A DNA stretch of 48,349 nt from a virus. The stretch is from IMG/VR virus record IMGVR_UViG_3300037110_000132; one strand, written 5' to 3'. Positions within the stretch are counted from its first letter, which is position 1. Each line of letters begins with the position of its first letter. The notes below the pieces were generated by a model, which did no database searches, had not been told where the DNA came from, and was given only the letters and a program-made list of their open reading frames with translations. Positions 4,439-39,043 of the stretch are shown one piece after another. The position numbers and the translations under genes were made by a program.

Positions 4439-4617
4439 ACTTTAGGATAACACTAATCAACAGAACTGATCTCGGAATGTTAATTCCGCTGATTTCAGTG
4501 TTGAGTAAATTCAAGGTGTTTCCTAGGGGTGCGCACCCCAAAGAGGCTTTATAGGAGTGATCCTAAATTGAAAGCTTTCATAACCTGTAATCGGTTGAGT
4601 TGGGCTACACCAACTTT

Positions 4618-4686
4618 GCAAGCATAACTCAGTTGGCAGAGTATCGCCGCAAGCGGAAGCCACAGGTTCGAATCCTGTTGTTTGCA
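4618..4686 (+). tRNA. tRNA-like gene with an aberrant, shortened anticodon arm
   Basis: Acceptor gcaagca/tgtttgc, D-arm ACTCAGTTGGCAGAGT and T-arm acagg-ttcgaat-cctgt are all good. Only 19 nt separate the D- and T-arms; they form a ccg-CAAG-cgg mini-hairpin instead of a 7-nt anticodon loop. Confidence 0.4.
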
Positions 4687-4692
4687 AAAATT

Positions 4693-4767
4693 GCGCATGT
4701 GACCCGAGTGGTTAGGGGCAGGGCTGCAAACCCTGTGACGCTGGTTCGAATCCGGTCATGCGCTCCA
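4693..4767 (+). tRNA. tRNA-Cys (GCA)
   Basis: Acceptor gcgcatg/catgcgc. Anticodon stem caggg/ccctg with loop ctGCAaa. T-arm gctgg-ttcgaat-ccggt. CCA encoded. Confidence 0.8.
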
Positions 4768-4776
4768 TGTTAGAAT
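4768..4776 (+). promoter_or_regulatory. Extended -10 element aTGtTAGAATaa
   Basis: ATGTTAGAATAA directly follows the tRNA-Cys 3' end. The identical 12-mer recurs at 20903 upstream of tRNA-Ala. An AAGAGG Shine-Dalgarno and the ATG at 4792 follow. Confidence 0.45.
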
Positions 4777-4791
4777 AACAAAGAGGTTCTC

Positions 4792-5082
4792 ATGAAAATC
4801 ATCCTACAAGCTACTGTGAAGACAGCCAACTTCGATGCCAACACGGAATGGCAAATTTCCATCACAAGAGATGATGGCCAAATGCCCACAAGACAAGAAT
4901 GCGAAGCGGTGTGTACAGCTGCTGGTGCTACCCTCGTCAGATACGATCCTGAAGGAGATGGAGAAGGCGTTACTAGCGCGAAGATTGGACCACAAATCGC
5001 GAGAATTAAGCAAGTTGCTGGTTATGTTAAAGGTGTCAAACTTCATGGGACCAAATATTACCTTGAGTTCATGGGAAGATAG
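4792..5082 (+). CDS. Hypothetical small protein with a leader-like N-terminus (MKIILQATVKTANF)
   Basis: 96-aa ORF with Shine-Dalgarno aagagg. Confidence 0.55.
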   Translation: MKIILQATVKTANFDANTEWQISITRDDGQMPTRQECEAVCTAAGATLVRYDPEGDGEGVTSAKIGPQIARIKQVAGYVKGVKLHGTKYYLEFMGR

Positions 5083-5108
5083 AAGGGGTGAGAGATTACC
5101 TCCATTAT

Positions 5109-5183
5109 GGGACTAGGTGCCGCAAGGCATCCACACGGCAAAGGGGTCATGTCCAAGCTTCGGTTCGAATCCGAGTAGTCCCC
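5109..5183 (+). tRNA. tRNA-like gene (perfect 7-bp acceptor and T-arm, non-canonical core)
   Basis: Acceptor gggacta/tagtccc is perfect. T-arm ttcgg-ttcgaat-ccgag. The D-region is a gcc-GCAA-ggc tetraloop hairpin, and no standard anticodon arm could be placed. Confidence 0.35.
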
Positions 5184-5419
5184 CATTTGTATAAACAGTC
5201 TATATGTTATTTCTCTTAATCGCGCATAGACGATCGTAAGAGAAGTTGCGCGAGGGCCAAAGAACTGAGCAATTCACGTCCGGTTGCTCTTCCGACTGGG
5301 GTCAGGTAGATAGTGGATCTGGCACTCACGATCGAGGCAAAAGCGGGTGCTGGAGGAATCTGGCACCCGTTCCTATGTTCAATCGCTCAAGGGTTATTAT
5401 AGGTAGAAAGCGAGGAACA

Positions 5420-7375: not shown

Positions 7376-7615
7376 TTGTCACCACTCAGGAAATGGGCTT
7401 TAAGAATCGTTACCGGTCTTGCCATCTCACTGGTTGCGTTGTTTGAACTAGCAAGGCTCTTCTATCATAGTCGTGTTTGGTTTCCTGATTCTATTGCTCG
7501 AAAAGGACTAAAGTTAAGTGTATATTGGCCCTATAGCTCAGCGGTTAGAGCAAGCGGCTCATCGGGTTTGATGAACGTGTTTATTGAACTCCAGCATATA
7601 ATCGCTGGGTCCTAG
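7376..7615 (+). CDS. Possible small membrane protein (TTG start); doubtful because it overlaps the tRNA at 7526
   Basis: Strong Shine-Dalgarno taaggaga 6 nt upstream of the TTG. Hydrophobic N-terminal helix. The 3' third overlaps the intron-containing tRNA. Confidence 0.25.
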   Translation: MSPLRKWALRIVTGLAISLVALFELARLFYHSRVWFPDSIARKGLKLSVYWPYSSAVRASGSSGLMNVFIELQHIIAGS

Positions 7616-7638
7616 GTTCGAATCCTAGTAGGGCCACC
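7526..7638 (+). tRNA. tRNA-Met/Ile (CAT) interrupted by a 37-nt insertion in the anticodon loop
   Basis: Acceptor ggcccta/tagggcc. D-arm gctc-agcggttag-gagc. Anticodon stem agcgg/tcgct spans 44 nt. Mature loop ctC|ATaa is obtained if the insert sits between nt 34 and 35. Confidence 0.65.
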
Positions 7639-8170
7639 AATTGATAATCGAAAGAGGATTGTGAAGTTCACCATGACAATTGGTGCATAAAAGATCGCAT
7701 TTGGCCGCCTCCATGAGAAGATTTTCCCAAGAATGGAATGCACAGTTATTATTATCAAGTTCGAATTCTTTAGTGGTTGGATTTTTGTGATGAAAACTCA
7801 AAACCGAATAGTTCTTATGATATCCACAAGAAATGCATGCGGATCCTGCTGACATGATTAGCTCAATTCTTCTTTTTCTACCAAAAGCGATTTGAATTTT
7901 CCAACTTCTTGATCGAATATTATTGTTACATTCTCTACACCAAGGGTATACTCTACCATCCGCTTTGGTTGGGAATTTGTCGGTTGGCTTCTTCAGATGA
8001 CATTGCGGACAAACTTTTCCCTCCGAATAGTCTGTCTCGTAACGCAGACTCTTCCCACTCTTGAATGGAATACAATCAAGACAAGCTTTCCGATTTCCCA
8101 GATTTCTGGGTTTCCCATCCACAGTGATCCAACTAGGGAATTCTTTTCCACATTTTATGCAATTTTTCAT
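7625..8170 (-). CDS. HNH homing endonuclease
   Basis: Motif HHKNP...KEFELDNNNC...W..L..KCDLLCTNCHGELH, with N-terminal CxxC zinc fingers. Confidence 0.7.
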   Translation of the reverse strand: MKNCIKCGKEFPSWITVDGKPRNLGNRKACLDCIPFKSGKSLRYETDYSEGKVCPQCHLKKPTDKFPTKADGRVYPWCRECNNNIRSRSWKIQIAFGRKRRIELIMSAGSACISCGYHKNYSVLSFHHKNPTTKEFELDNNNCAFHSWENLLMEAAKCDLLCTNCHGELHNPLSIINWWPY

Positions 8171-8251
8171 CTTGGCCTCTGTTTCATTATAGCGTAGCAG
8201 TTAGGGTAACCTTTGTGGATGTGGGGTAAGCTACAGGTTGATTTCACATAA

Positions 8252-8281
8252 TTGACAAATGCTGGGATTTCGTGCTATACT
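8252..8281 (+). promoter_or_regulatory. Strong sigma70 promoter TTGACA-18-TGcTATACT
   Basis: -35 TTGACA at 8252-8257. Extended -10 cgTGcTATACT at 8276-8281. A gaaagg Shine-Dalgarno and the ATG at 8308 follow. Confidence 0.6.
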
Positions 8282-8307
8282 TTGGTTCGGTTTTGAAAGG
8301 AACCAAC

Positions 8308-8607
8308 ATGGCATCTCTCATCAACAAACGTGAAATCATCGCAGCCCAGGTCGCCAGCCAGGGTGGATGCCGAATGCCACTGCTCATCGCTGCCATGATG
8401 CAAGATGGTAGAATGCGGACCGGTGACAAATCCCTGGTGGATATCACCGACCTGATCGAGGAAATGATCGTGGACGGGGATCTCGTGGAAGTGATCTACT
8501 TCCTCCCTCCCGAACTCACTGATTCCGAACAGCCTATATCGTTCCTCTTGCCGAAAGGCACGAGGGTTACAAGCTTGGACGCGATTTTGTCCAAGACCGC
8601 AAGCTAA
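8308..8607 (+). CDS. Hypothetical protein (GC-rich)
   Basis: In-frame ATG at 8308 has a better ribosome-binding site than the ORF start at 8272. Confidence 0.5.
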   Translation: MASLINKREIIAAQVASQGGCRMPLLIAAMMQDGRMRTGDKSLVDITDLIEEMIVDGDLVEVIYFLPPELTDSEQPISFLLPKGTRVTSLDAILSKTAS

Positions 8608-8989
8608 ATCTGATCTTTGATATTGCTGATGGGATTTTGAGGAATGGACCTCTGGGAATTGGACAGAGCTAAATAAACCTCGAGCCTTAATTCCGCTCTT
8701 CGTTAAGCCGCAAGGCGACGTTAAGAGTAGGCCGGGAACCGGTGAATCAGCACAAATCTTGGACCCCTCGCAAGGGGATGAAACCTTGCACCGGCCTTGG
8801 GAATAGGAGTTGCGAATCCCCCAAGCCGTTTGTCACTCATATTGGCTACCAATAGTGCAAGCTGGTAGATCTGGTATGACTAAACCTAGCTCACAAGGCG
8901 ACAGTGGTGGATACGATCAGAGGAAAGCCAATTCCAAGAATCTCTGAGGCCCCGAAAGGGGCCAAAGGGGTGTAACTGATCTTTAACAT

Positions 8990-22287: not shown

Positions 22288-22404
22288 AGGGGTATAGCTC
22301 AGTTGGTCAGAGCGTCTGGCTTATCACTTTCCATGAAGTTGGTGGTTCGTGCAAAGTATTCCACACCCAGAAGGTCGTAAGTTCGAGCCTTACTGCCCCT
22401 ACCA
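22288..22404 (+). tRNA. tRNA, probably Val(TAC), interrupted by a 40-nt insertion in the anticodon loop
   Basis: Acceptor aggggta/tgcccct. D-arm gctc-agttggtca-gagc. Perfect anticodon stem tctgg/ccaga spanning 47 nt. T-arm gtaag-ttcgagc-cttac. CCA encoded. Loop ctT|ACac is obtained if the insert sits between 34 and 35. Confidence 0.6.
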
Positions 22405-22546: not shown

Positions 22547-24469
22547 ATGGCATTAATGGATCGTTATCAGAATCGCCAGATCAGTTCCAAGAAAGAAGAA
22601 TTAACTCTACAGGAATACCTGGATCTCTGCAAAGCCGACCCAACCACCTACGCCAATGTAGCAGAGCGGATGCTAATGGCCATTGGTGAACCCGAAGTAA
22701 TCGATACTCACCTGACTGACAGGAATTCCAGGATCTTCGCTAACAAGATGATCAGGGTCTATCCCGCTTTCAAGGACTTTTATGGCATGGAAGAAGTGAT
22801 TGAGTCTATCGTCGCATATTTCCGACATGCTGCTCAGGGGTTGGAAGAGAAGAAACAGATCCTTTATCTTCTCGGTCCTGTCGGTGGTGGTAAGTCCTCC
22901 CTGGCCGAGGGCCTTAAGTATCTGCTCCAAAAGGTCCCGTTCTTTGCCATTAAGGGTTCTCCCGTCAATGAGTCACCCCTTGGGCTATTTGATGTGGTGA
23001 ACGATGCCAAGGCGTTAGAAGAGGAATATGGCATTCCCAGTCGGTATCTTGGTAGTATTTTGAGTCCTTGGGCGGTCAAGCGTCTGGAAGAGTTTGATGG
23101 TGATATCTCCAAGTTCAAGATCATCAAGCTTTTCCCTTCTACCTTGTCTCAGGTCGCTATCTCCAAGACGGAACCCGGAGATGAAAACAACCAGGATATT
23201 TCTTCACTGGTTGGCAAGGTTGACATCAGGAAGCTGGAAAAGTACAGCCAAAATGATACCGATGCTTATTCTTACTCCGGTGGTCTGTGCCTATCTAATC
23301 AGGGCATCTTGGAATTCGTTGAGATGTTCAAGGCTCCGATTAAAGTACTGCACCCTCTGCTGACTGCTACCCAAGAAGGAAACTACAAGGGAACTGAGGG
23401 CTTTGGTGCTATTCCGTTCAACGGTTTAGTCCTGGCTCACTCAAATGAAGCTGAGTGGCAGACGTTCAGAAATAACAAAAACAACGAAGCCTTCCTGGAC
23501 CGCATCTACATTGTCAAGGTTCCTTATAGCCTTCGTTTCACTGATGAAACTAGAATCTATCAGAAGCTGCTGGATAACTCTAGCTTGAGCGCAGCACCCT
23601 GCGCTCCTGATACCCTCAAGATGCTGGCCCAGTTCTCTGTCCTCTCTAGACTAAAGGTTCCAGAAAATTCCAGCGTCTTCAGTAAGATGAGGATCTATGA
23701 TGGTGAGAACCTCAAGGATATCGATCCCAAGGCAAAGAGCTATCAGGAATACAAGGACTTTGCTGGTGTGGATGAGGGAATGATCGGTCTGTCCACCCGG
23801 TTCGCCTTCAAGATTCTGTCCAAGGTGTTCAACTATGACCACAATGAGATCGCTGCCAATCCAGTCCATCTCATGTACATCCTGGAGACTCAGATCGGAC
23901 AGATGCAATTCCCGACTGCCACTGAGGACATGTATCGCAAGTACATCAAGGAGTACCTCTCACCCAAATACGCGGAATTCATTGGCAAAGAGATCCAGAC
24001 TGCATACCTCGAAAGCTATGGTGAGTATGGACAGAATATCTTCGATCGCTATGTGGTCTATGCTGACTTCTGGATCCAGGATCAGGAATTCAGAGATCCC
24101 AACACTGGCGAGATGCTGGACCGGGCTGCGCTCAACGAGGAACTGGAAAAGATCGAGAAACCAGCTGGTATCTCTAATCCGAAGGACTTCCGTAATGAGG
24201 TAGTCACATTCGCACTCAGAGCGAAAGCCAAGCACGAGGGCAAGAACCCTTTGTGGACCTCTTATGAGAAACTCCGTGCAGTAATCGAGAAGAAGATGTT
24301 CTCTAATACTGAGGAATTGCTCCCTGTCATTTCCTTCAACACCAAGGCAAGCGCGGACGATCAGAAGAAACACAAAGACTTCTTGGACCGGATGATCGCT
24401 AGGGGTTACACTGAGAAGCAAGTCCGTCTGCTGTGTGACTGGTACCTGCGCGTAAGGAAATCTTCATGA
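22547..24469 (+). CDS. prkA: PrkA/YeaG family serine protein kinase (AAA+ N-domain)
   Basis: 640 aa. The N-terminus aligns with E. coli YeaG (TLQEYL...YANAAERLLMAIGEP...YPAFEEFYGMEDAIEQIV...AAQGLEEKKQILYLLGPVGGGKSSLAE). Walker A motif GPVGGGKS. Confidence 0.85.
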   Translation: MALMDRYQNRQISSKKEELTLQEYLDLCKADPTTYANVAERMLMAIGEPEVIDTHLTDRNSRIFANKMIRVYPAFKDFYGMEEVIESIVAYFRHAAQGLEEKKQILYLLGPVGGGKSSLAEGLKYLLQKVPFFAIKGSPVNESPLGLFDVVNDAKALEEEYGIPSRYLGSILSPWAVKRLEEFDGDISKFKIIKLFPSTLSQVAISKTEPGDENNQDISSLVGKVDIRKLEKYSQNDTDAYSYSGGLCLSNQGILEFVEMFKAPIKVLHPLLTATQEGNYKGTEGFGAIPFNGLVLAHSNEAEWQTFRNNKNNEAFLDRIYIVKVPYSLRFTDETRIYQKLLDNSSLSAAPCAPDTLKMLAQFSVLSRLKVPENSSVFSKMRIYDGENLKDIDPKAKSYQEYKDFAGVDEGMIGLSTRFAFKILSKVFNYDHNEIAANPVHLMYILETQIGQMQFPTATEDMYRKYIKEYLSPKYAEFIGKEIQTAYLESYGEYGQNIFDRYVVYADFWIQDQEFRDPNTGEMLDRAALNEELEKIEKPAGISNPKDFRNEVVTFALRAKAKHEGKNPLWTSYEKLRAVIEKKMFSNTEELLPVISFNTKASADDQKKHKDFLDRMIARGYTEKQVRLLCDWYLRVRKSS

Positions 24470-25698
24470 TCATTGATCGAAGATCGGATAGCAAGCATAA
24501 AAGCTCCGTTAACCGAAGTAGATTCATCCAACGCTTTAAAGGCCAGATCAAGAAAGCTGTCTCTGATACAATCAACAAGGACAGCATCAAAGATCTGGCT
24601 GGCAAGAAGATTGGGATTTCCAATAGAAGCATCAAGGAACCACGATTCAGGACTGGGCCTGGAGGGATATCAGAGGATGTCCATCCAGGTAATGATAAAT
24701 ATCATTCAGGTGAAGAAGTAGAAAGGCCCTATGGCGATGATGGCATGGGATCTAGCGCCAGTCCTGATGGAGAGGGTATGGACGAATTCGTCTTCACCCT
24801 TTCTAGAGAAGAATTCCTGGATATCTTCTTTGAGGAACTGGCACTTCCTAATCTGACTAAGAAGTATTTGGCCAGTTTAAAGGAATTCAAGCGGGTAAGG
24901 GCTGGGATTAGTAATGCCGGAACTCCTAATAATATCAATCTCGTCCGGACTTTCAGGAGCGCCACAGGCCGAAGGGTAGCCATCGGTGGTCCTTATGCCA
25001 CTGAATTAGCAGAATTAGAGGAGAAACTAGCTGAAGTCACAGATGAAGAAGAATTCACATTCCTAACAGAAGAAATAGAGAGGGTCAGGACTCGGATTAG
25101 TCACATTCCCTGGATTGATACCTTCGACCTCCGGTATAATTATCATGATAAGGTTCCTCAGCCTTCGGCTCAGGCTGTTATGTTCTGCTTGATGGATGTA
25201 TCTGGATCAATGGACGAGGAGAAGAAGAACATCGCTAAGCGATTCTTCACCCTCTTATATCTGTTTTTGACTCGTACCTACGAGAAAACTGATATCGTCT
25301 TCATTCGCCATCATGTTCATGCCGAAGAAGTGGATGAGGATACTTTCTTCCATTCTCAGGAAACAGGTGGAACTATTGTTTCCTCAGCATTGAAGCTGAT
25401 GCTCCAAATCATCGAAGAGCGTTACAACAACGGTCAATGGAACATCTATGGTGCACAGGCTTCAGATGGTGACAATTGGTTCGAAGATTCCAATGGGTGT
25501 ATTCAGCTATTGGAAGATCAAATTCTTAAGTTGGTCCAGTATTTCGCGTATGTAGAGATTGCTGAGCGCCCACAAAGCTTGTGGGTTGAATATGAATCAA
25601 TCACGCCGAAATATGAAGGGCTGTTTGCGATCAGACGGATTAATAGCGCGGCTGATATCTATCCAGTGTTCTGTGATCTCTTTAAGAAGCACGAGTAA
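24466..25698 (+). CDS. yeaH: YeaH/YhbH (DUF444) vWA-like protein
   Basis: 410 aa. Stop/start overlap with prkA. MIDAS-type DVSGSMDE motif. Canonical partner of PrkA. Confidence 0.75.
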   Translation: MIIDRRSDSKHKSSVNRSRFIQRFKGQIKKAVSDTINKDSIKDLAGKKIGISNRSIKEPRFRTGPGGISEDVHPGNDKYHSGEEVERPYGDDGMGSSASPDGEGMDEFVFTLSREEFLDIFFEELALPNLTKKYLASLKEFKRVRAGISNAGTPNNINLVRTFRSATGRRVAIGGPYATELAELEEKLAEVTDEEEFTFLTEEIERVRTRISHIPWIDTFDLRYNYHDKVPQPSAQAVMFCLMDVSGSMDEEKKNIAKRFFTLLYLFLTRTYEKTDIVFIRHHVHAEEVDEDTFFHSQETGGTIVSSALKLMLQIIEERYNNGQWNIYGAQASDGDNWFEDSNGCIQLLEDQILKLVQYFAYVEIAERPQSLWVEYESITPKYEGLFAIRRINSAADIYPVFCDLFKKHE

Positions 25699-25700
25699 CT

Positions 25701-27224
25701 ATGCGACAGAAAAAGCCCAAGCTCCCAAAGCTCCCCACCCCTCTCCCCACCGGCTCTGAATGGAGCTTTGATTCCATTCAGGCTTTTGATGATGCATGCA
25801 AGAAGGTAGCGGATAGATTCTCATTGGATTCCTATCCTCACCAGCTTGAAATCATCAGTGCTGAGCAGATGATGGATGCCTATGCGAGCATTGGTATGCC
25901 AGTGTTCTATCATCACTGGTCTTTTGGTAAATCCTTCCTAGCCACGGAGAATAAATATAAACGTGGCTACATGGGCTTGGCATACGAGATCGTGATCAAC
26001 TCAGATCCCTGCATTGCCTACCTAATGGAAGAGAACACCCTGACAATGCAAGCACTCGTCATTGCCCATGCCGCATATGGTCATAATAGCTTTTTCAAGG
26101 GCAACCACTTGTTCAAGCAGTGGACCAGTCCAGATTCTATCATCGACTATCTGGTCTTCGCTAAGAATTTCATCACGGAATGTGAAGAAAAATATGGTCA
26201 AGAGACAGTAGAGAAGATGTTAGATGCTTGCCATGCCCTGATGAATCTTGGTGTGGATAGACACAGACGCGCTCCTAAGCTCTCAATGGTGAAAGAGAAG
26301 CTTCGTCAGAAGGAACGTGAGGAATATCTACAGTCACAGGTCAATGAGCTTTGGAAGACTTTACCTTTCCAGTCCAAGAAGGAAGAAGGAAATACAGAGA
26401 AGTTTCCTAAGGAACCAGAGGAGAACGTCCTCTATTTCATCGAGAAGAATGCTCCCCTCCTGGAACCCTGGCAACGAGAAATTATCAGGATTGTCCGTAA
26501 GATCGCACAATACTTCCACCCTCAGAAGCAAACTCAGCTAATGAACGAAGGGTGGGCATGTTTCTGGCACTATAAGATTCTGAACACATTATATGACGAT
26601 AATTTGGTCGGTGATGGGTTCATGCTTGAGTTCCTACAGTCCCATACAAATGTCTGTTATCAACCAGCCTATAGTAGCAAATGGTATTCGGGAATTAGTC
26701 CCTATGCCTTTGGTTTTGCAATGTGGCAAGATATTAAGCGGATTTGCGAGAAGCCAACAAAAGAGGATTCTGAATGGTTCCCTAGCATCGCAGGATCAGA
26801 CTGGCGTGAGACACTTGAGTTCGCTATGAACAATTTCAAGGATGAGAGTTTTGTCTCCCAGTATCTCTCTCCAAAGATGATGAGAGATTTCCATTTATTC
26901 TCTGTGCTAGACGATGATGAGGAAGAAGATCTCATTATCGGCCCAATCCATGATGAGGTTGGTTACTATGGATTGCGTCAGAGATTGTCGGATCAATACA
27001 ACCTGGGCAGTCGTGAACCAAATATTCAGGTTTGGAATCTGGATAAGCGTGGAGATCGGACTCTGACCCTGAGATATTTCAGCTACCATCGGAAACCCCT
27101 TTACAAAGATTTCATTGATGTTGTGAAATACACCGCTTATCTCTGGGGCTTCCCAGTTGCCCTGGAAGAGCAAGATGAAACGGGCTTCGTGGACTTCTTG
27201 GGGATGGAAACTCCTGAAATTTGA
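25701..27224 (+). CDS. spoVR: SpoVR/YcgB family protein
   Basis: 507 aa. Third member of the conserved prkA-yeaH-spoVR triad. Assignment rests on size, operon context and conserved blocks such as YHHWSFGKSF and EGWACFWHYKIL. Confidence 0.7.
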   Translation: MRQKKPKLPKLPTPLPTGSEWSFDSIQAFDDACKKVADRFSLDSYPHQLEIISAEQMMDAYASIGMPVFYHHWSFGKSFLATENKYKRGYMGLAYEIVINSDPCIAYLMEENTLTMQALVIAHAAYGHNSFFKGNHLFKQWTSPDSIIDYLVFAKNFITECEEKYGQETVEKMLDACHALMNLGVDRHRRAPKLSMVKEKLRQKEREEYLQSQVNELWKTLPFQSKKEEGNTEKFPKEPEENVLYFIEKNAPLLEPWQREIIRIVRKIAQYFHPQKQTQLMNEGWACFWHYKILNTLYDDNLVGDGFMLEFLQSHTNVCYQPAYSSKWYSGISPYAFGFAMWQDIKRICEKPTKEDSEWFPSIAGSDWRETLEFAMNNFKDESFVSQYLSPKMMRDFHLFSVLDDDEEEDLIIGPIHDEVGYYGLRQRLSDQYNLGSREPNIQVWNLDKRGDRTLTLRYFSYHRKPLYKDFIDVVKYTAYLWGFPVALEEQDETGFVDFLGMETPEI

Positions 27225-27266: not shown

Positions 27267-28010
27267 ATGATGAATTCGTTTGACTTCGAAGAGGAATCAG
27301 CTAAACATGATGCGATTGTGGCCGCGATGACTCCGTTCGACAAGATCAAGAAGATCAAGAGGAACAATCTCCAATTGATGAAGATGGATAGATACTTGGA
27401 GAAGAAAGTTTCCAGGATTCTCAAGGACTACTTCAAGAAGCCCCTGGATCAGCGTGTTATTTATATCACCAATTATGAGATGATTCACCGCTCTGATTGC
27501 TTTGAAACTCATCCAGGGGCCGTCGTCACTCATACTTCGGATATCTTGGTCAATGGTAGTAGCTATTATTGTGCTATCTGTGGCTATTACATTAGCACCC
27601 ATGAGGGCTGTGGTTCCTGCGATGTGATGATGAGGATCCCTTATTCCCTGTGGGAGCGAGTCTATTCCTGCTTCAGTCAGCTACAATACCTCACTGAGGG
27701 CTGGAAGTGGTTTCGAAAACGATTCTACTGGCTACCCAAACGGGGTTACCATTGGTTCTTCGAAGTCGATGATATCAGCCATTCCTATTTCAACCTGGAA
27801 CTGAAGCCTGATCATGACGGGGATACATGGCTTGAGCGGGATCTCAAGTATATGCTGTCCCGCAGCACTTTCGAATCTGATATCCGCTGGATCGGCACCC
27901 TGCCCGATGGCCTGGGAGAGAAGGACCTGGAAGATGCTGTGAAATGCTGGTTCAAGGACCGGTATGACCTTGAAATTAACGTCAAGTGGGTCCCGAACGA
28001 TCTTGACTAA
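27267..28010 (+). CDS. Hypothetical Cys/Trp-rich protein
   Basis: 247-aa ORF with Shine-Dalgarno aggaga. Motif CAICGYYISTHEGCGSC. Confidence 0.5.
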   Translation: MMNSFDFEEESAKHDAIVAAMTPFDKIKKIKRNNLQLMKMDRYLEKKVSRILKDYFKKPLDQRVIYITNYEMIHRSDCFETHPGAVVTHTSDILVNGSSYYCAICGYYISTHEGCGSCDVMMRIPYSLWERVYSCFSQLQYLTEGWKWFRKRFYWLPKRGYHWFFEVDDISHSYFNLELKPDHDGDTWLERDLKYMLSRSTFESDIRWIGTLPDGLGEKDLEDAVKCWFKDRYDLEINVKWVPNDLD

Positions 28011-29467
28011 AGAATACTTGTGTTAGAAGTCGTGTTGTGGTATAATTTTTTCGGATAAGGCTAACGCCGAATCCCGCTCCCCCGCCAGGGTGCGACTGGT
28101 GTAATCCTGGTGGGTGTAGGTCCGGGGGAGTCAACAAATCTTCCCCGGACCACCGAGATCCTTGACAACTTGGCATGCAGAGATTGTAAGATTAGGATCA
28201 CGAGCCTATTCAAAGCCTTGCGTTGAAGCTATAAACCGACCTGCGAGGGTCTGTTCTTGGTCTGAGTCGATGGAGGGGGCAACTCCTGAGAAATTGGCAA
28301 CATGATACGCGGAGACTAAAAAGGATCTTACTTGTGGAGATATAATCGCCACCTGGACCTAAAAAATCTAGAAATGGATTTGCGTTTCACCGCAACGTGG
28401 GCGGTGCAACTTCCGGTATAAGCTAGCGATAGTGAAGCTGGAGGCCATGATGGTTGAGGGAGAGCCATCTGCTAGGCTACGGTTTGTTGGCTTGTTGCCG
28501 TAGTAAAAGATAGCCTAAAACCAACACCCATTCGGTCTTGCTAACCGGGTGGTTTCGATGGGACCGGCATGAAGGCCGATCACAGCCAGTCATCAGAGCG
28601 CCCTTAGAGCCTGTGGCAAAGAGCCTGAAAGTTAGGCCGCGCCGGTAAAGCAGGATTGGGTGCAATTTCGGAAAAGAACAACTTGGAATCGCCGGGAAAC
28701 CGGAGTCCGCAAAGAGGCCGATGGACTGAGATACTGGTGATGCCCCTGGAAGCATCAAAGGGAATGGAGCGTGGAGCATAAGGGAGATCTAATACAAGCC
28801 CGAAAGCTGTGAAACAATCCATCTGATCTAGACTCACCCTTTGACGCTGGATGACTCCTGATAGATTAGGTGCATCTCAATTTGATATCAGGATAAGCGA
28901 AGAATTCTGGACCCAGCGGATGAATTCGTCGAAAACCCCCTATGCAGTGACATGGGATGGTTGCAGGTATGAGAAACCTGATACTTTCAGTTGAGAAAGA
29001 CTGGATTACTTACACGTGGTAAAGAACGTGAGGTCCTGGACACGCTTGAATTTGCTAAGGGCGTGGATGCGGTGAGCCAGGATGCTGGGGAGAGGGTACC
29101 AGCAGGGGTGAAGTTTCGCATTGACTCCTTAGTCCTTCTTAGGATAAGCTGCGAGATAGGGTGATGATTTCCCTAGACGAATGGACGAGGAATAAGACGC
29201 TGAGTCCAGAAACTATAATCCGGTGCTCGATCTTCCGCCGTGAGTGGAGATCCGGTAATTGAGACACCCTCCTCGTAAATAGGGAATCTCCGGTGACAAT
29301 GAGAACTAACGCCATCAGGAAACATCGTCCAGTTCTACAGTCAGCTGCTACACCGGTAGTTTCGCCTCATAAGGTGCATGCTGGTTACGCTGCGAAATGT
29401 TGACGTCTTGACCGAGGGCATGAGGTCATGCAAATTGAGGGGGAGCCTAAAAACTCCCCCTCAATAT
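28011..29467. ncRNA. Candidate large structured non-coding RNA (1.45 kb ORF-free region)
   Basis: No ORF of 60 aa or more on the + strand, in an otherwise gene-dense window. Contains a 9-bp perfect hairpin ggtccgggg/ccccggacc (28119-28151), a hairpin tgatgc/gcatca (28735-28754) and several GNRA-type tetraloop hairpins. Confidence 0.3.
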
Positions 29468-30805
29468 TTATATATGAACGAGTGGAGCAAATCTATCTTG
29501 TCCGTCATAATATTCAGTAAACCCAAGTTCTTTAGCTCTCTTTATAAGAGTAGCCTTATCCTCATTAGCTCCTCTTAACTGCAAATCTCTATAAGTCTCG
29601 CTGGCAAACAAAACATACCAAGGGCGCTTGGAAGCTTTTAGATTCTCATAGATAAAACATTCCACCACAAATTTTTTTATCTTGATCTTGATTGGTAGTT
29701 TCTTGCCTCTAGGCTTAATATAGTTTTCAGATTCTCCAATGAAACCCCCAGGCCATTCTCCATTGATAACTGCTCCATTAATGAGTTTTATCCCATCGAA
29801 CCCAACTGAGAACCAACTCCATATTAGTTCGATTGCAGCGTTCTCAAATTCGCATTGAATTCCATTTGGTAATTCATACCAACCATCTACTTCTTTGTAT
29901 CCATAATCACCCTTTGTGAATTTCTGTAATCCCAGAGGATCTTTCGGCATATTGTTGGTTTCTAGGGTCTTCCCGGTTAGTGCATGCACTGCTTTTGCGA
30001 AAGGCCCTCTTAATTGTCCTGACACTTTATGATATAGCTCAAATTCGTCTTCTAATTTATATTTGTTGTTCAATGCTTTCTGAAGAGGAAATGCCATTTC
30101 ATGATATTTATTGTCAAAATGATCCCAAATGCTCCCATTATGATGGCAGACATCATAAGCATGGTCTATGGCGATTACCTTTTCTATTAAACTGTTTGCG
30201 GATAACAACCTCTTATATCCTGGTACCACCTGCAAGTACCAAGGATCTTTCTCTCCTCCCATGGACAAGTATTCATGGACAGTCTCACAAAATAGTAATC
30301 CCTTGTTTCCCAAAAGTTTTAATTGGGCTTTTATATTATTATCCTGAATGTTCGCTCGTTCTTCTTGGATTTCCTTAGCCTTTTCAGGGTCTTTGGTATA
30401 TAGAACCGGAGACAGATCAGGTAAAGGTTTAATAGTATTTTTATCAAATAATAATTCGTAATTTGGGAACACTTTAGAGACTTTGGCTAAACCTCTACGA
30501 CGTTTCTCTTCTAGTCTTTCCGTTATTTCCTTTGTAGCACATTCAGTATGTTGCATCGCATCTTTTAATTCATCAATTGCTCTCCAATAAACCGCTTGCT
30601 TGAAATTCTCCAAAAGATCCCGATGAAGGTAATCAATCAATTTCTCTTCTGCATCTTTGACGTAAGACTCTAGGTCAATATCTAGTTCTTTAGCCCTATG
30701 AGTAACTAAAGATAAAGCGTAAAAATCGTACAAACACAAAATCGGGTCCTTCGGAATCTCGTAGGACCGAGAAGATGCAATTTTAGCCTTCAGATATAAT
30801 TTCAC
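29468..30805 (-). CDS. Hypothetical protein (445 aa) with the N-terminal leader MKLYLKAKIASS
   Basis: Minus strand, AT-rich. N-terminus matches the leader family. Confidence 0.6.
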   Translation of the reverse strand: MKLYLKAKIASSRSYEIPKDPILCLYDFYALSLVTHRAKELDIDLESYVKDAEEKLIDYLHRDLLENFKQAVYWRAIDELKDAMQHTECATKEITERLEEKRRRGLAKVSKVFPNYELLFDKNTIKPLPDLSPVLYTKDPEKAKEIQEERANIQDNNIKAQLKLLGNKGLLFCETVHEYLSMGGEKDPWYLQVVPGYKRLLSANSLIEKVIAIDHAYDVCHHNGSIWDHFDNKYHEMAFPLQKALNNKYKLEDEFELYHKVSGQLRGPFAKAVHALTGKTLETNNMPKDPLGLQKFTKGDYGYKEVDGWYELPNGIQCEFENAAIELIWSWFSVGFDGIKLINGAVINGEWPGGFIGESENYIKPRGKKLPIKIKIKKFVVECFIYENLKASKRPWYVLFASETYRDLQLRGANEDKATLIKRAKELGFTEYYDGQDRFAPLVHI

Positions 30806-30979
30806 AAGTTCCTCTAAATTTCATTTTAACATTTGAGTGATATACTTGGATAAGGAGGTCAGATTTATGGATTTCATTGAGAAGCGTAAACACAAACATT
30901 TTAGACTCCTCTTCATTAGCTTCCATGATTTATGGATTAGACATATCAAACCAGATATTTACTCGGCTTTCTCTGATCA

Positions 30980-32023
30980 CTAAATCTTTTTCTTTCGTGG
31001 ATTCTTTTCGTGTTGTCCAGCCCAAAGTTCATCAAAGATCTTCTCGATTCTGCCAGTAACTAATAGATCTAGGAATTCTCTCTTTGAGCTATTTTTAATA
31101 TCAAATTGGAAAGTATCACAAGGTCTATGATCACTATTATTCCATTTGTTGTATTCACACTGGAAATGATCGGGGTCAAGGATAGCAAGAGACAGATTGC
31201 CACCTTTATTGGGTAAATCAAAGCTCCAGCCGGGGTCGCTATTCCAGGTTTTATGGGGTGTCCCACCACCGAATTTTTGAGATAATTTTTCACCCAATTT
31301 CTTCATTTCCCTTTTGATTAGTGCATCAATTTGGAGGCCCTCTTGCCCTCCCCACTCTCCGAATAACTTACAAATTTCCACAGGGTAGGAACCGCCTTTA
31401 AGCAGATATTCCTTCTGGTGGAATCTCACAATATGATCCAGGATCTCATCCGGGAGGTCCGACATAGCAATACCAATTTGGTCGGGTGTGACGGTAGTCT
31501 TTAGGATCACCCCCAGAGAATCTGGGTCCCGACCCACAATAGAGAAGGTGCCTGCAAACTGTTCAGCAATTTCTGGGTTTGAACTCCAAGATTGCACCTT
31601 GAGGGTCTTATAGATCCCAGTACTCCCTACTTGAGGATCTTTGATACCCAATTTCTTCATGAAAGGAGCACCATTGATGGATTTGAAACCTAAGCCTCTA
31701 TAGAGGACTATTGGCTGGGTTGGGCAGAAGCGTTCGAAATAGGGAAAGATGTCCTTGTCAACGATCTTGCCTGCGTTGTTGTTATATCGATTTAGTTCTT
31801 CTGCGGCCCAAGTAGGGATTTTGTTATCTCTTAGATAATTTTCATAATTTTCTCTGATTTGGCTCTGGACCTTGCGATATTGACGATCAATTTTTTCCGT
31901 CTTGGAATTTTCATCCCAACTGTTGACTCCCCGTGCTCGCTCCTCGTCATTGACCCTGATGTACTCCTCCCTCAATTTAGTGAGTTTATCACGTAGAGGA
32001 CCAGCTATCATGGTTAGTTTCAT
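30980..32023 (-). CDS. Putative ADP-ribosyltransferase (R-S-E type), 347 aa
   Basis: Motifs VLYRGLGF, VQSWSSNPEIAEQFA and HQKEYLLKGG (Q-x-E). N-terminus MKLTMIAGPL is weakly leader-like. Confidence 0.55.
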   Translation of the reverse strand: MKLTMIAGPLRDKLTKLREEYIRVNDEERARGVNSWDENSKTEKIDRQYRKVQSQIRENYENYLRDNKIPTWAAEELNRYNNNAGKIVDKDIFPYFERFCPTQPIVLYRGLGFKSINGAPFMKKLGIKDPQVGSTGIYKTLKVQSWSSNPEIAEQFAGTFSIVGRDPDSLGVILKTTVTPDQIGIAMSDLPDEILDHIVRFHQKEYLLKGGSYPVEICKLFGEWGGQEGLQIDALIKREMKKLGEKLSQKFGGGTPHKTWNSDPGWSFDLPNKGGNLSLAILDPDHFQCEYNKWNNSDHRPCDTFQFDIKNSSKREFLDLLVTGRIEKIFDELWAGQHEKNPRKKKI

Positions 32024-32401
32024 ACAATCATCCCATTTAATTTTAACCTGAATGGATGGAGTTAATATTTAATAAATTCAGGTTATAATTAAAACACTGG
32101 GATTTAGGCTAGTTGGCAAACCTGAGGACTCTGACTCCTCCATCCTCCGTTCAAACCGGAGAGTCCCAACCAAAACGAGGGGTTCATGTGGCCCATAAAT
32201 CAACTCCCAAATTACACCTCCATTGAACCAACGAAATCCACAAAGGTCATTATTCCTGTTGGCAAGGTGGAGAAAGCGAATTGCCAGTCTTTTAATCCGG
32301 ATAGTCTTATTGGCCTCATCATTGATATTTGGGGTTAAAATGAAAAAGATCAAAATTACCGCTATCGGGCACACTACCTGACCGACGAGGACTTTGCGAC
32401 G

Positions 32402-32662
32402 ATGCAACTGGAAATGATGGCGAATCCGGAAATGGGCGATGTGATTGAAAATACGGGCGGTCTCAGAAAGCTGAGGCAACCGGATCCCAAGCGAGGGAAA
32501 GGGAAACGCGGCGGTCTGCGGGTGATCTACTACTGGTGGGAATCGGGTCGGCAGTTCTGGCTGTTCACCCTCTATAACAAGGATGAGGTCAGTGACCTGA
32601 CCGCCCAGGAGCGCAAGGCTTTCAAGGGAATGCTGAAGCGGGAACTTGAGGTGCGACGATGA
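32402..32662 (+). CDS. Type II toxin, RelE/HigB superfamily
   Basis: GGLRKLR...GKGKRGGLRVIYYW...LFTLYNKDEVSDLT signature. GC-rich. 4-bp overlap with the downstream antitoxin. Confidence 0.6.
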   Translation: MQLEMMANPEMGDVIENTGGLRKLRQPDPKRGKGKRGGLRVIYYWWESGRQFWLFTLYNKDEVSDLTAQERKAFKGMLKRELEVRR

Positions 32663-33012
32663 AGAAGCGGAATCTGTTCGAGGAAATCCAGGAGGGTTTC
32701 GAGGCCTTGGCCGAGGCGAGGGCTGGGAAGCTAACCTTGCGCACCCATCGCGTGGAGATGGCTGCCGTGTCTGAGGTAACTCCCGGCGAAGTGCTTGCTC
32801 TGCGTGAGAAGCTGAACCTGTCGCGTGCCGTGTTCGCCCGCTATCTGCGAACCAACCCCCGGACCGTCGAGAACTGGGAACAGGGTCGGGTCCATCCCAA
32901 CGCCCAAGCCAGCCTATTATTGCAGAAAAGCAGAAGACCATCTTTGGGATTAGAATCCCTTTTTTGGTGGTATTCCTGCGAAATCGAAATTGAGGACGAT
33001 TTATCCCTCTAA
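32659..33012 (+). CDS. HTH (XRE/HigA-like) antitoxin
   Basis: Helix-turn-helix LSRAVFARYLRTNPRTVENWEQGR. Translationally coupled to the upstream toxin. Confidence 0.6.
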   Translation: MKKRNLFEEIQEGFEALAEARAGKLTLRTHRVEMAAVSEVTPGEVLALREKLNLSRAVFARYLRTNPRTVENWEQGRVHPNAQASLLLQKSRRPSLGLESLFWWYSCEIEIEDDLSL

Positions 33013-33313: not shown

Positions 33314-33322
33314 TGTTATAAT
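33314..33322 (+). promoter_or_regulatory. Extended -10 element cTGtTATAATtgg
   Basis: Follows the tRNA 3' end. A gaggt Shine-Dalgarno and the ATG at 33340 follow. Confidence 0.4.
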
Positions 33323-36843: not shown

Positions 36844-39043
36844 ATGATAAGTAAAGCTGATAGGCTAGAATGGGGAATAGACCTTATTCCTGAAACATTC
36901 TATCTAATCAAAATCAAAAATTGGTCGCAGAGTGGTGATCCCTGGCCCTGCTTATTTCCCACTCTGGCCCCGTCAGTCCCATACGGTCATCAGCGGTCAT
37001 CAGCTTCGTTCGAATCAGTACCTTCTGGTGCGGGTCTACAATGATCATGAAGCTGCTGCTAACTGGGACAAGGCAGTCATTAAGAAGGCCAGCCATGATT
37101 CGAAGAGCGAAGTGGCTAAGCCCGAGCAGCTTACCACCGGCCAGCTACTGATCATCAAAGGCACCGAAGTATCCTTCTACATTCCACCGACTGGAATCGA
37201 AGTGGTCGCGGATCGTGTTGGCAACTTCGTCCGTGAAGCGGTCACCTTGGAACGGATGGAATTCTGCATCCTGAAGGAAGAGCGTGGTGAGAAACGCTAC
37301 GTTCAGGGTCCTGATGTTGTATTCCCCTCTCCCACGGAAACCTTCGTGGAAATGAATGGGGAAATGAAGTTCAAGCCCATCGAACTCACTCCTATTTCGG
37401 GCCTGTACATCAAGGTTATCGCGGATTACACGGAAGGTGGGACCGAATACAAGAAGGGTGACGAACTCTTCATTACTGGCAACCAGCAAGCCATTTACTA
37501 CCCCCGTCCTGAACACAATATCATCAAATATGGGGATCGGACCGTTCATCATGCGGTTGCGGTCCCCAGGGGTGAGGGCCGGTATGTGCTGAACCGCGAA
37601 ACCGGTGAAGTGGGTCTGATTAAGGGACCCCTGATGCTCCTGCCCGATCCGCGTCGGGAAGTGATCGTGCGTCGGGTGCTGGATGCGAATCAAGTGTCTC
37701 TCATGTATCCGGGGAACCAGCAAGCCCTAGAAGTGAACAAGCTACTCAAGGCTGAACTGGAATCCTCCCCCAAGCAGGAAGCTACCTTCTCTCGTGGACT
37801 GATCGCTTCGGCTGCTTCGGCTATGAACACCTTCGCGGGAGATGCGCTGACTCGTAGCACCAGCTATAATCCTCCTCGCACGATCACCCTGGACACCAAG
37901 TATGACGGAGCCGTGGCGATCAGCCTTTATTCCGGATTCGCTGTGCTGATCGTCAACAAGTCTGGTGACAGAAAGGTCGTCGAAGGTCCCGCCGCGATTC
38001 TGCTGGAATACGACGAGACTCTTATGCCCATGGCTCTGTCCACCGGCAAGCCCAAGACCAACAACACCCTCATTCACACCGTCTACCTACAGGTCAAGAA
38101 CAACCGGATCAGCGACAAGATCATGGGAGTGGAAACCAAGGATCTGGTGCGAGTGGATATCACTCTGGCCTACCGGGTCCATTTCGAAGGCAATGATCCG
38201 CTCAAATGGTTCCAGGTCGACAACTACGTTCACCATCTGGTGGAACATGGCCGGTCCATGCTGCGCAACGCGGTCAAGCAGGTGGGGATCGAGGAATTCT
38301 ACAACAACCCGATCGCCATGGTGCGTGATACCCTGCTGGGTCCCGCCTCTGACAATGAAAGTCGCAGAGGACTCGTGTTCAAGGAAAATGGCATGCGGGT
38401 CTATGATGTCGACGTCCTGATGGTCGAGATCGAAGATTCGAAGATTGCCAGTCTGCTCGAAACCGCCCAGGAGGAGGTCATCGCTACTACCCTGGTGATC
38501 GCTGGCAAGGAACGGGAACTGCAGAAGGTGATGCGGGTTGAGGAAATCAACCGCAACATCGAGAAGGAACAGGCTATCACCGTGGCGACCAGGGTTGACC
38601 TGGAAATCGAGAAGGCCAAGAATCAGCTGAAGAAGAGATTGGAAGAACTCACTGGCAACGCCCTGGTAGAATCCTCCCGCCTCCAAGCTGAAGAAGATCG
38701 ACTGGCTCTGGTGGACAACATTTCCACTGCGGAATTAGCCCGTCGCAAGGCTGAGAAAGATCAGGAGATCGAATTCACTCGTCAGGAGATCGAACAGGAA
38801 CTGAAGCGGCTTCATGGTGAGACTGAGGAAATCGTCCAGCGGTCCACTGCAGTCAGTGAGAAGCTCATTTCCGCGCTCCAGGCTTTCGGGGACAAGGCTC
38901 TGCTGGAGAAGGTGGCTGAAGCGATGGCCCCGCTGGCTATCCTGCGTAATAGTGGAGTGGTGGAAGCTTTCACCGGTCTGCTGAAGGGAACCCCCTACGC
39001 GGATATCCTCCTCAAGAGCACTGTGGCCAAAGTCATCAAATAA
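36844..39043 (+). pseudogene. Major vault protein (MVP)-like gene, split by a frameshift at a 10-bp tandem duplication; the downstream frame 36932-39043 is intact
   Basis: MVP-repeat-like segments (compare RYVLNRETGEVGLIKGPLMLLPD with human [24 protein letters not shown]). Shoulder/SPFH-like block ITLAYRVHFEGNDP (compare LQLAYNWHFEVNDR). Long C-terminal cap-helix-like coiled coil. Deleting one copy of GGTCATCAGC (36985-37004) joins the ATG at 36844 (frame 1) to the 703-aa frame 2. Confidence 0.6.
36985..37004 (+). repeat. 10-bp perfect tandem duplication GGTCATCAGC x2 that causes the frameshift
   Basis: Read directly from the sequence. Confidence 0.95.

Follow-up and report, generated by a model that had tools for sequence, protein, structure and literature searches.

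What, if anything, is encoded in the largest gene-free gap of this phage genome fragment? In the 48,349-nt stretch of viral DNA recorded as IMGVR_UViG_3300037110_000132 (hereafter the window), the 1,457 nt between positions 28011 and 29467 form the largest segment without genes or tRNAs, approximately threefold longer than the next one (~0.4-0.5 kb in a gene map based on codon usage). An earlier note, made from the sequence alone, had suggested a large structured RNA akin to the phage RNAs GOLLD and ROOL. The single-sequence tests agree with the first part of this idea (a predicted promoter and terminator, no coding signal, an excess of GNRA tetraloops and a folding z-score of -4.3), whereas the kinship to GOLLD and ROOL did not hold up. 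On balance, we lean towards reading positions 28053-29472 of the + strand as a stand-alone gene for a multi-domain structured non-coding RNA (ncRNA) of approximately 1.42 kb, belonging to a family not yet described. The candidate is currently a singleton, and one sequence is the whole evidence.

The gap was tested for coding capacity in several ways. As the earlier note had stated, no + strand open reading frame (ORF) of at least 60 amino acids (aa) lies wholly within 28011-29467; the longest comprises 57 aa, and a 66-aa ORF (29378-29578) begins inside the gap and crosses the terminator into the convergent gene. The balanced G+C content was likewise confirmed (50.2%; G 416, C 315 of 1457), as was the strand switch, which falls at 29467/29468 where a gene converges on the gap. 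On the - strand the longest ORFs measure 100, 77 and 64 aa, and the first of these (28477-28779) is of approximately chance length at 15-18 stops per 485 codons. Each + strand frame contains 26-31 stops and each - strand frame 15-18, and because all six frames abound in each of TAA, TAG and TGA, no single-codon reassignment opens a frame. Recoding and an alternative genetic code were ruled out on these grounds. Six-frame translations of the gap gave no Pfam match at E≤1. With a codon model trained on the window genes, gap ORFs of at least 33 aa scored -0.18 to +0.15 bits/codon, compared with +0.07 to +0.42 for the genes themselves. The period-3 spectral power of the gap is 0.8, a background level, compared with 1.4-38 in 22 genes, and the residual best-frame codon bias obtained in a frame-switching scan is 0.016, compared with mostly 0.09-0.35 in genes. 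The latter two values make a recently frameshifted pseudogene unlikely, and together with the absence of a six-frame Pfam remnant they led to the rejection of this candidate. The 100-aa antisense ORF gave only a low-complexity repeat match among 1.84 billion representative proteins. Thus, no test returned a coding signal for a conventional gene, under an alternative code or for a frameshifted pseudogene, the outcomes which the earlier note had named as contradicting an RNA.

Both borders of the gap bear sequence signals (Table 1). A predicted sigma-70-type promoter begins 8 nt past the upstream stop codon, and its TTGTGT and TGgTATAAT elements would direct initiation at a G at ~28053-28054. 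The window contains four copies of the extended -10 motif TGNTATAAT, compared with 1.3 expected by chance over both strands, and all four are located on the + strand, each at the 5' end of a transcription unit. Three of them are followed by a Shine-Dalgarno sequence and an ATG within ~25 nt, whereas the gap copy is followed by no ATG for ~120 nt. This distribution suggests that transcription of the phage depends on host sigma-70 acting at extended -10 promoters. At the opposite border, the predicted intrinsic terminator is the only strong one in the 2.5 kb scanned (27500-30000) and was listed on the + strand only. Its GC-rich hairpin (29434-29465) ends 2 nt short of the stop codon of the convergent gene, and the terminator probably also ends this - strand gene, which encodes a 445-aa protein. 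The positions of promoter and terminator set the predicted ends of the transcript. The G-over-C and A-over-T skews of the gap agree with those of + strand genes and are opposite to those of the adjoining - strand block.

The + strand of the gap folds more stably than its composition predicts. The minimum free energy of the full length is -506.7 kcal/mol (z = -4.3; 0 of 48 dinucleotide shuffles as stable), compared with z = -3.2 for the antisense strand and z = +0.46 to -2.61 for nine coding controls of the same length. Folding energy and RNA-specific motifs accordingly go beyond composition on one strand, the controls having z = -2.6 or weaker. In the partition function, long-range helices with pair probabilities of 0.87-1.00 and spans of 140-620 nt delimit three predicted domains. 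The central domain has z = -2.34 with 3 of 200 shuffles equally stable, and the 3' domain z = -3.09 with none of 20 shuffles as stable. Two individual stems had been pointed out before. The one at 28119-28151, described as a perfect 9-bp stem, is real and longer, with 12 bp including one G-U pair and a pair probability of 1.00. The tgatgc/gcatca stem exists approximately 3 nt away from the place first given, at 28738-28743/28752-28757, but its bases pair long-range in the predicted fold.

GNRA loops are classic tertiary-contact elements that dock into helices and compact large RNAs. Their presence in the gap, noticed earlier by eye, turned out to be a real excess, with six + strand tetraloops closed by at least 4 bp (loops at 28243, 28279, 28337, 28371, 28426 and 28696) compared with 0.97 in dinucleotide shuffles, of which 1 in 5000 reaches six. 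Five of the six cluster in 28238-28433. The - strand contains no such hairpin, and the density of 4.2 per kb in the gap compares with 0.70 per kb for the rest of the + strand. The excess of folding stability and of GNRA hairpins is thus strand-specific, and the strand specificity of the latter supports the + strand as the functional one.

Table 1. Predicted and observed features of the gap and its borders, with positions in the window
Feature	Positions	Strand	Details
prkA-DUF444(yeaH)-spoVR(ycgB) operon	22547-27224		Upstream of 247-aa gene
247-aa gene	Stop codon 28008-28010	+	Upstream border of gap
Sigma-70-type promoter (predicted)	28018-28046	+	-35 TTGTGT 28018-28023, 17-nt spacer, extended -10 TGgTATAAT 28038-28046; read from sequence
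TGNTATAAT motifs	343-351, 28038-28046, 33314-33322, 44891-44899	+	Two immediately 3' of tRNA genes
Predicted non-coding transcript, ~1.42 kb	28053-29472	+	Ends from promoter and terminator
5' domain (predicted), ~470 nt	28053-28524	+	z = -3.72
5' hairpin	28081-28114	+	10-bp outer stem CCCGCCAGGG/UCCUGGUGGG, two G-U pairs; pair probability 0.99
12-bp hairpin	28119-28151	+	GGUCCGGGGGAG/CUUCCCCGGACC, 9-nt loop UCAACAAAU; pair probability 1.00
GNRA hairpin gaccu-GCGA-ggguc	28238-28251	+	
GNRA hairpin agggg-GCAA-cuccu	28274-28287	+	
GNRA hairpin uugug-GAGA-uauaa	28332-28345	+	Weak stem, two G-U pairs
GNRA hairpin aaaucua-GAAA-uggauuu	28364-28381	+	7 bp
GNRA hairpin gcua-GCGA-uagu	28422-28433	+	4 bp
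Central domain (predicted), 138-nt multi-branch	28525-28662	+	Closed by ~19 bp, 28525-28548 with 28642-28662; pair probabilities 0.87-0.97
GNRA hairpin ccgg-GAAA-ccgg	28692-28703	+	
3' domain (predicted), 619 nt	28724-29342	+	~19 bp in four segments, 28724-28748 with 29316-29342; pair probabilities 0.97-1.00
307-nt sub-domain of 3' domain (predicted)	Closed by 28905-28918/29198-29211	+	Inverted repeat I1, 14 nt, 93% complementary
Intrinsic terminator (predicted)	29434-29475	+	Perfect 12-bp stem AUUGAGGGGGAG/CUCCCCCUCAAU, 8-nt loop, then AUUUAUAUAU; pair probability 0.98
445-aa gene	Stop codon 29468-29470	-	Convergent, downstream border of gap

Relatives of the gap were sought in sequence collections. 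A blastn search (word size 11) against 50,697 phage and 72,556 plasmid records and a megablast search of the 12 kb around the gap against the 50,697 phage records returned nothing. Twelve exact-seed collection scans (eight viral, two metagenome and two genome) gave either nothing or chance matches inside unrelated genes, the metagenome collection scanned not holding the source contig itself. Matches to three seeds were dismissed as chance, namely GGCTACGGTTTGTTGGCTTG (two matches, both inside a 463-aa ORF), GGAGGGGGCAACTCCTGA (one match, in an unrelated coding sequence) and YYRRGAAAYYRRAGTCCGCAAAGRRR (three matches, in lysine-rich coding repeats). A 24-mer from tRNA-Asp as well as GGTCCGGGGGAGTCAACAAA, TTGCTAACCGGGTGGTTTCG, GCTGAGTCCAGAAACTATAA, CCCGCCAGGGTGCGACTGG and GACTGAGATACTGGTGATG had zero matches in the public collections. 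The sole other copy of the region is an identical 4.2-kb Logan contig (SRR11596275_99010), probably from the same community. The closest relatives of the SpoVR protein of the window (70-74%) are encoded on bacterial (betaproteobacterial) chromosomes with no such gap, and neither the SpoVR loci of huge phages (L002-L019) nor the loci of proteins resembling the Major Vault Protein (MVP; L033 and L034) show similarity to the gap region or a syntenic gap. Apart from these SpoVR or MVP-like genes, the huge-phage loci have nothing in common with the window. In the literature, neither a described large ncRNA of huge phages nor any record of run SRR11596275 was found.

Several observations weigh against the proposed RNA gene. 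Covariation is the accepted standard for a structured RNA, and because no homologue was found in any of the collections, the candidate has no covariation support. A simple promoter scan omitted 28018-28046, where the -35 element matches at only 3/6 positions, and there is no terminator between the upstream operon and the gap, so that part of the transcription could be read-through. Of the ten segments tested, the + strand of the gap has the most extreme z-score by a margin that is not wide, and z = -2.6 was obtained for some of the coding controls. In local windows of 200 nt, the z-scores do not exceed those of neighbouring genes; the description of the gap as rich in strong local hairpins thus holds only in part, through the full-length z-score. 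The domain z-scores are flattered because the domain boundaries were taken from the prediction itself. A kissing interaction between the loops 28129-28138 and 28483-28492 was rejected, as it was not robust in the maximum-expected-accuracy fold and loop-loop complementarity was not above that of shuffles. GNRA clusters are not unique to the gap either, with five hairpins each in 4557-5355 and 7661-8954, and some of the clusters elsewhere in the window may be terminators.

Other kinds of organisation were looked for in the gap. Tandem or internal repeats (CRISPR, ToxI-like arrays or a triplicated unit) were discarded: short repeats ~513 nt apart were seen, and diagonal analysis gave background. 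An 11-bp inverted repeat flanks the region (28053-28063/29551-29561), with ~0.35 such repeats expected by chance.

The main competitor of the RNA gene is a non-functional spacer, i.e. decayed DNA, a gene remnant or a recombination scar, or else a long 3' untranslated region (UTR) of the prkA-yeaH-spoVR-orf247 operon, and we consider it rather unlikely. A singleton gap between two orphan genes, in a part of the genome that is evolutionarily fluid, is what such a spacer would look like, and the missing terminator after the upstream gene fits the UTR variant. The best-frame codon bias, though low, lies slightly above that of mononucleotide shuffles (-0.076 +/- 0.023), as a gene remnant might. On the other hand, neither a period-3 signal nor a Pfam remnant is present, and phage genomes rarely keep 1.4 kb of junk, whereas this gap is approximately three times any other in the window. 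The extended -10 motif directly after the stop codon would have to be accidental, although its other copies all coincide with real starts of units, and a strand-specific GNRA excess (P ~2e-4) together with z = -4.3 is unexpected of decayed DNA.

It is improbable that the gap is divided into several short products, either small RNAs (the first ~200 nt, ending at 28238-28251) or micro-peptides, or both. The site at 28238-28251 is terminator-like, with GACCUGCGAGGGUC followed by UGUUCUUGGU, but it consists of a 5-bp stem with a poor U tract, and the gap as a whole has just one convincing promoter and one strong terminator. Huge phages contain many very small genes, and a GGAGG (28440-28444) is placed 5 nt before the ATG (28450-28452) of a 17-codon ORF; no gap ORF, however, has gene-like codon usage. 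The concentration of five GNRA hairpins in less than 200 nt could mark a small unit, whereas the high-probability helices over 140-620 nt join distant parts of the gap.

A function of the - strand is very improbable, whether as the 3' UTR of the 445-aa gene, as a downstream RNA of this gene (guide-like or antisense), or as small genes such as the 100-aa ORF. The longest ORFs of the gap are indeed on this strand, but their codon scores range from -0.18 to +0.05 and the 100-aa ORF has no homologue among the representative proteins searched. The antisense strand also beats its shuffles, yet it contains no GNRA hairpin, compared with six on the + strand. The perfect symmetry of the terminator stem speaks for this reading, and its position directly 3' of the stop codon of the 445-aa gene speaks against it. 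No promoter for this strand was found inside the gap, the base skews fit + strand units, nothing marks the 445-aa protein as an enzyme using a guide RNA, and its sole homologue has no downstream gap.

The remaining question is whether the candidate belongs to a known RNA family. The Infernal/Rfam scan proposed in the earlier note was performed for the whole window against Rfam 15 (4227 families) at the gathering score and gave nothing in the gap. When the gap itself was searched, as a whole and in two halves, at E≤10 with permissive filters, only snoRNA, miRNA and lncRNA noise far below threshold was returned, with no match to GOLLD, ROOL or any other family. ARAGORN detected no tRNA or tmRNA in the gap. 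As far as covariance models see, GOLLD, ROOL, HEARO, OLE, raiA, group I and group II introns, RNase P and rRNA are excluded. A divergent member of a known family (GOLLD, ROOL, an ORF-less group II intron or RNase P) missed by these models is hardly credible, since its phage, tRNA-rich setting, its GUGCG and its many GNRA loops of the kind found in introns and RNase P are set against the empty scan, the impossibility of a 3' exon, the lack of a tmRNA and a length about twice that of GOLLD or an ORF-less group II intron.

The candidate can nevertheless be compared with these RNAs. GOLLD (RF01998), with a size of ~0.8 kb, is likewise a large many-stemmed ncRNA encoded by phages and prophages, often in tRNA-rich regions and as a stand-alone unit. 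The candidate differs from it in the absence of any sequence or structure match, in its size of ~1.4 kb and in having no tRNA directly adjacent. The earlier statement that the gap lies next to tRNA genes is only loosely true, with ~20 tRNA genes scattered over the 48 kb, but the nearest ones 2.6 kb downstream and 5.6 kb upstream. ROOL (RF03087) is an ornate large phage-associated ncRNA as well; the candidate has no Rfam match to it, is ~2.5 times longer than its ~580 nt and has loop-loop complementarity no higher than chance. Among bacterial ncRNAs, OLE, raiA and the HEARO/omega RNAs are also large and structured, and each has a promoter and a terminator of its own. OLE acts with partner proteins in Firmicutes and HEARO adjoins an IS605-type nuclease gene, and apart from the missing Rfam match, neither the partner-protein nor the nuclease context is present at the candidate locus. 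Group I and group II introns share the size class (0.6-2.5 kb), an organisation into several domains that long-range helices close, and multiple GNRA tetraloops serving tertiary contacts, and a GUGCG pentamer at 28090, near the 5' end of the candidate, resembles the group II 5' consensus GUGYG. This pentamer is not enough for a group II intron. The models Intron_gpII, group-II-D1D4 and Intron_gpI do not match, and no hairpin resembling domain V was seen by eye. The candidate has no reverse-transcriptase ORF and interrupts no host gene; it has its own predicted promoter, and because a convergent gene follows the gap, no 3' exon is possible.

For GOLLD, recent cryo-electron microscopy (cryo-EM) shows RNA-only homo-oligomeric assemblies (PMC12286853), and the same source extends RNA-only assemblies to ROOL and OLE. 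ROOL is described there and in PMC5737381 as an ornate, large, phage-associated ncRNA, often near tRNAs, which multimerises into an RNA-only assembly. The candidate would be functionally nearest to the ornate RNAs GOLLD, ROOL and OLE while being a member of none. Host RNA polymerase would start at the extended -10 promoter just 3' of the upstream gene and would stop at the strong intrinsic terminator common to the convergent gene. The RNA would make no protein and would fold into three domains of ~470, ~140 and ~620 nt, closed by long-range helices and with the GNRA cluster in the 5' half. Its most likely role would be that of a particle or scaffold during infection, as for GOLLD, ROOL and OLE. 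We do not think that it is an antisense regulator or an mRNA leader. Regulation of window genes by antisense pairing was rejected, the longest complementarity of 12 nt being at chance level, and so was a sponge for ribosomes or anti-Shine-Dalgarno sequences, as GGAG-type motifs are not enriched in the gap.

The tRNA genes, together with mostly orphan ORFs located nearly all on the + strand, give the window a huge-phage-like character. Homologues of two of its proteins, SpoVR and the MVP-like protein, occur in uncultured phages of 460-735 kb, and these together with the 344-kb Ralstonia phage RsoM2USA are their sole phage relatives (42-52% aa identity). The SpoVR protein shares 70-74% identity with proteins of betaproteobacteria (Propionivibrio, Azospira, Rhodoferax and Zoogloeaceae) but only ~50% with other huge-phage copies, which suggests a recent capture of the prkA-DUF444-spoVR operon from the host lineage and hints at a betaproteobacterial host. 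The 703-aa MVP-like protein (36932-39043) contains Major Vault Protein shoulder and repeat domains (Pfam 8.7e-25 and 6.3e-9) and is 42-45% identical to unannotated ORFs of the uncultured phages LR756500 (462 kb) and LR756501 (735 kb), at loci which have only this window gene in common.

The proteins adjoining the gap had no Pfam, PHROG or PADLOC match, and searches of the PDB with the sequences of three neighbouring proteins found nothing. The 247-aa upstream protein is unique among 5.8 billion proteins, and its AlphaFold model is unusable (predicted local distance difference test score, pLDDT, 36.8). For the 445-aa protein, Pfam and PADLOC gave no match and a sequence search of the PDB gave no meaningful one at E≤1, and the same 5.8 billion proteins contain a single homologue of 32% identity, whose contig is a densely coded phage without a comparable gap. 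This homologue is encoded directly 3' of a GH108 endolysin gene, and the 445-aa protein may accordingly be related to lysis. Its gene is part of a convergent - strand block (29468-32023) of two orphan genes (445 and 347 aa) inside the otherwise + strand genome, with a GC content of 0.36-0.44 per 1-kb bin compared with 0.47-0.50 on either side and a window mean of ~0.46. Beyond this block, at 32402-33012 on the + strand, a RelE-like ORF (24.3 bits, under the Pfam cutoff of 27; its upstream frame looks disrupted) precedes an HTH_3 protein, and the two are likely toxin and antitoxin. A 287-aa ORF on the opposite strand (32078-32941) overlaps a tRNA-Gln; it is probably spurious and does not have the codon usage of a gene.

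Elsewhere in the window, a 382-nt ORF-free gap (8608-8989) 5' of tRNA-Lys, which belongs to one of the two other places with five GNRA hairpins, contains several GNRA-type hairpins (GCAA, GCAA and GAAA), including GGCCCCGAAAGGGGCC. Its folding z-score is -2.1, and it may represent either a structured RNA of smaller size or several hairpins acting in termination or processing. Two tRNA genes, 22288-22401 and 7527-7636, are ~40 nt too long. Both are matched by Rfam over the whole length of its model (59 and 56 bits) but missed by ARAGORN. In the former, 43 nt are inserted into the anticodon loop behind 'CUUA', at a position like that of an intron. Group I introns are the usual introns of bacterial and phage tRNAs, and the inserts in both genes are far shorter than these. 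Between tRNA-Asp and the next promoter, the segment 33100-33300 resembles a tRNA on visual inspection, with a long insert in its interior and GGTTCGACTCCGG close to the 3' end, and was recognised neither by Rfam (E≤1) nor by ARAGORN.

Large structured ncRNAs other than those of the ribosome are rare, and the RNA architecture of every new class (GOLLD, ROOL, OLE and raiA) came as a surprise. Although rich in tRNAs and in genes related to translation, huge phages have, to our knowledge, not been reported to possess a large ncRNA of their own. The case marks a limit of comparative RNA discovery, in that a good single-sequence candidate from a lineage sampled once can be missed by covariation pipelines. 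Tentatively, and with some doubt, the candidate may even represent, as its first member, a class of giant ornate phage RNAs that is new, a compact three-domain particle held by GNRA contacts that could serve as a self-assembling cage or scaffold, or as a ribozyme, in huge-phage infection. If the proposed RNA gene is real, its 1.4-kb product would be among the largest non-ribosomal structured RNAs of bacteria and phages, nearly twice the size of GOLLD, and would lend itself to cryo-EM and to functional work on host takeover by huge phages.

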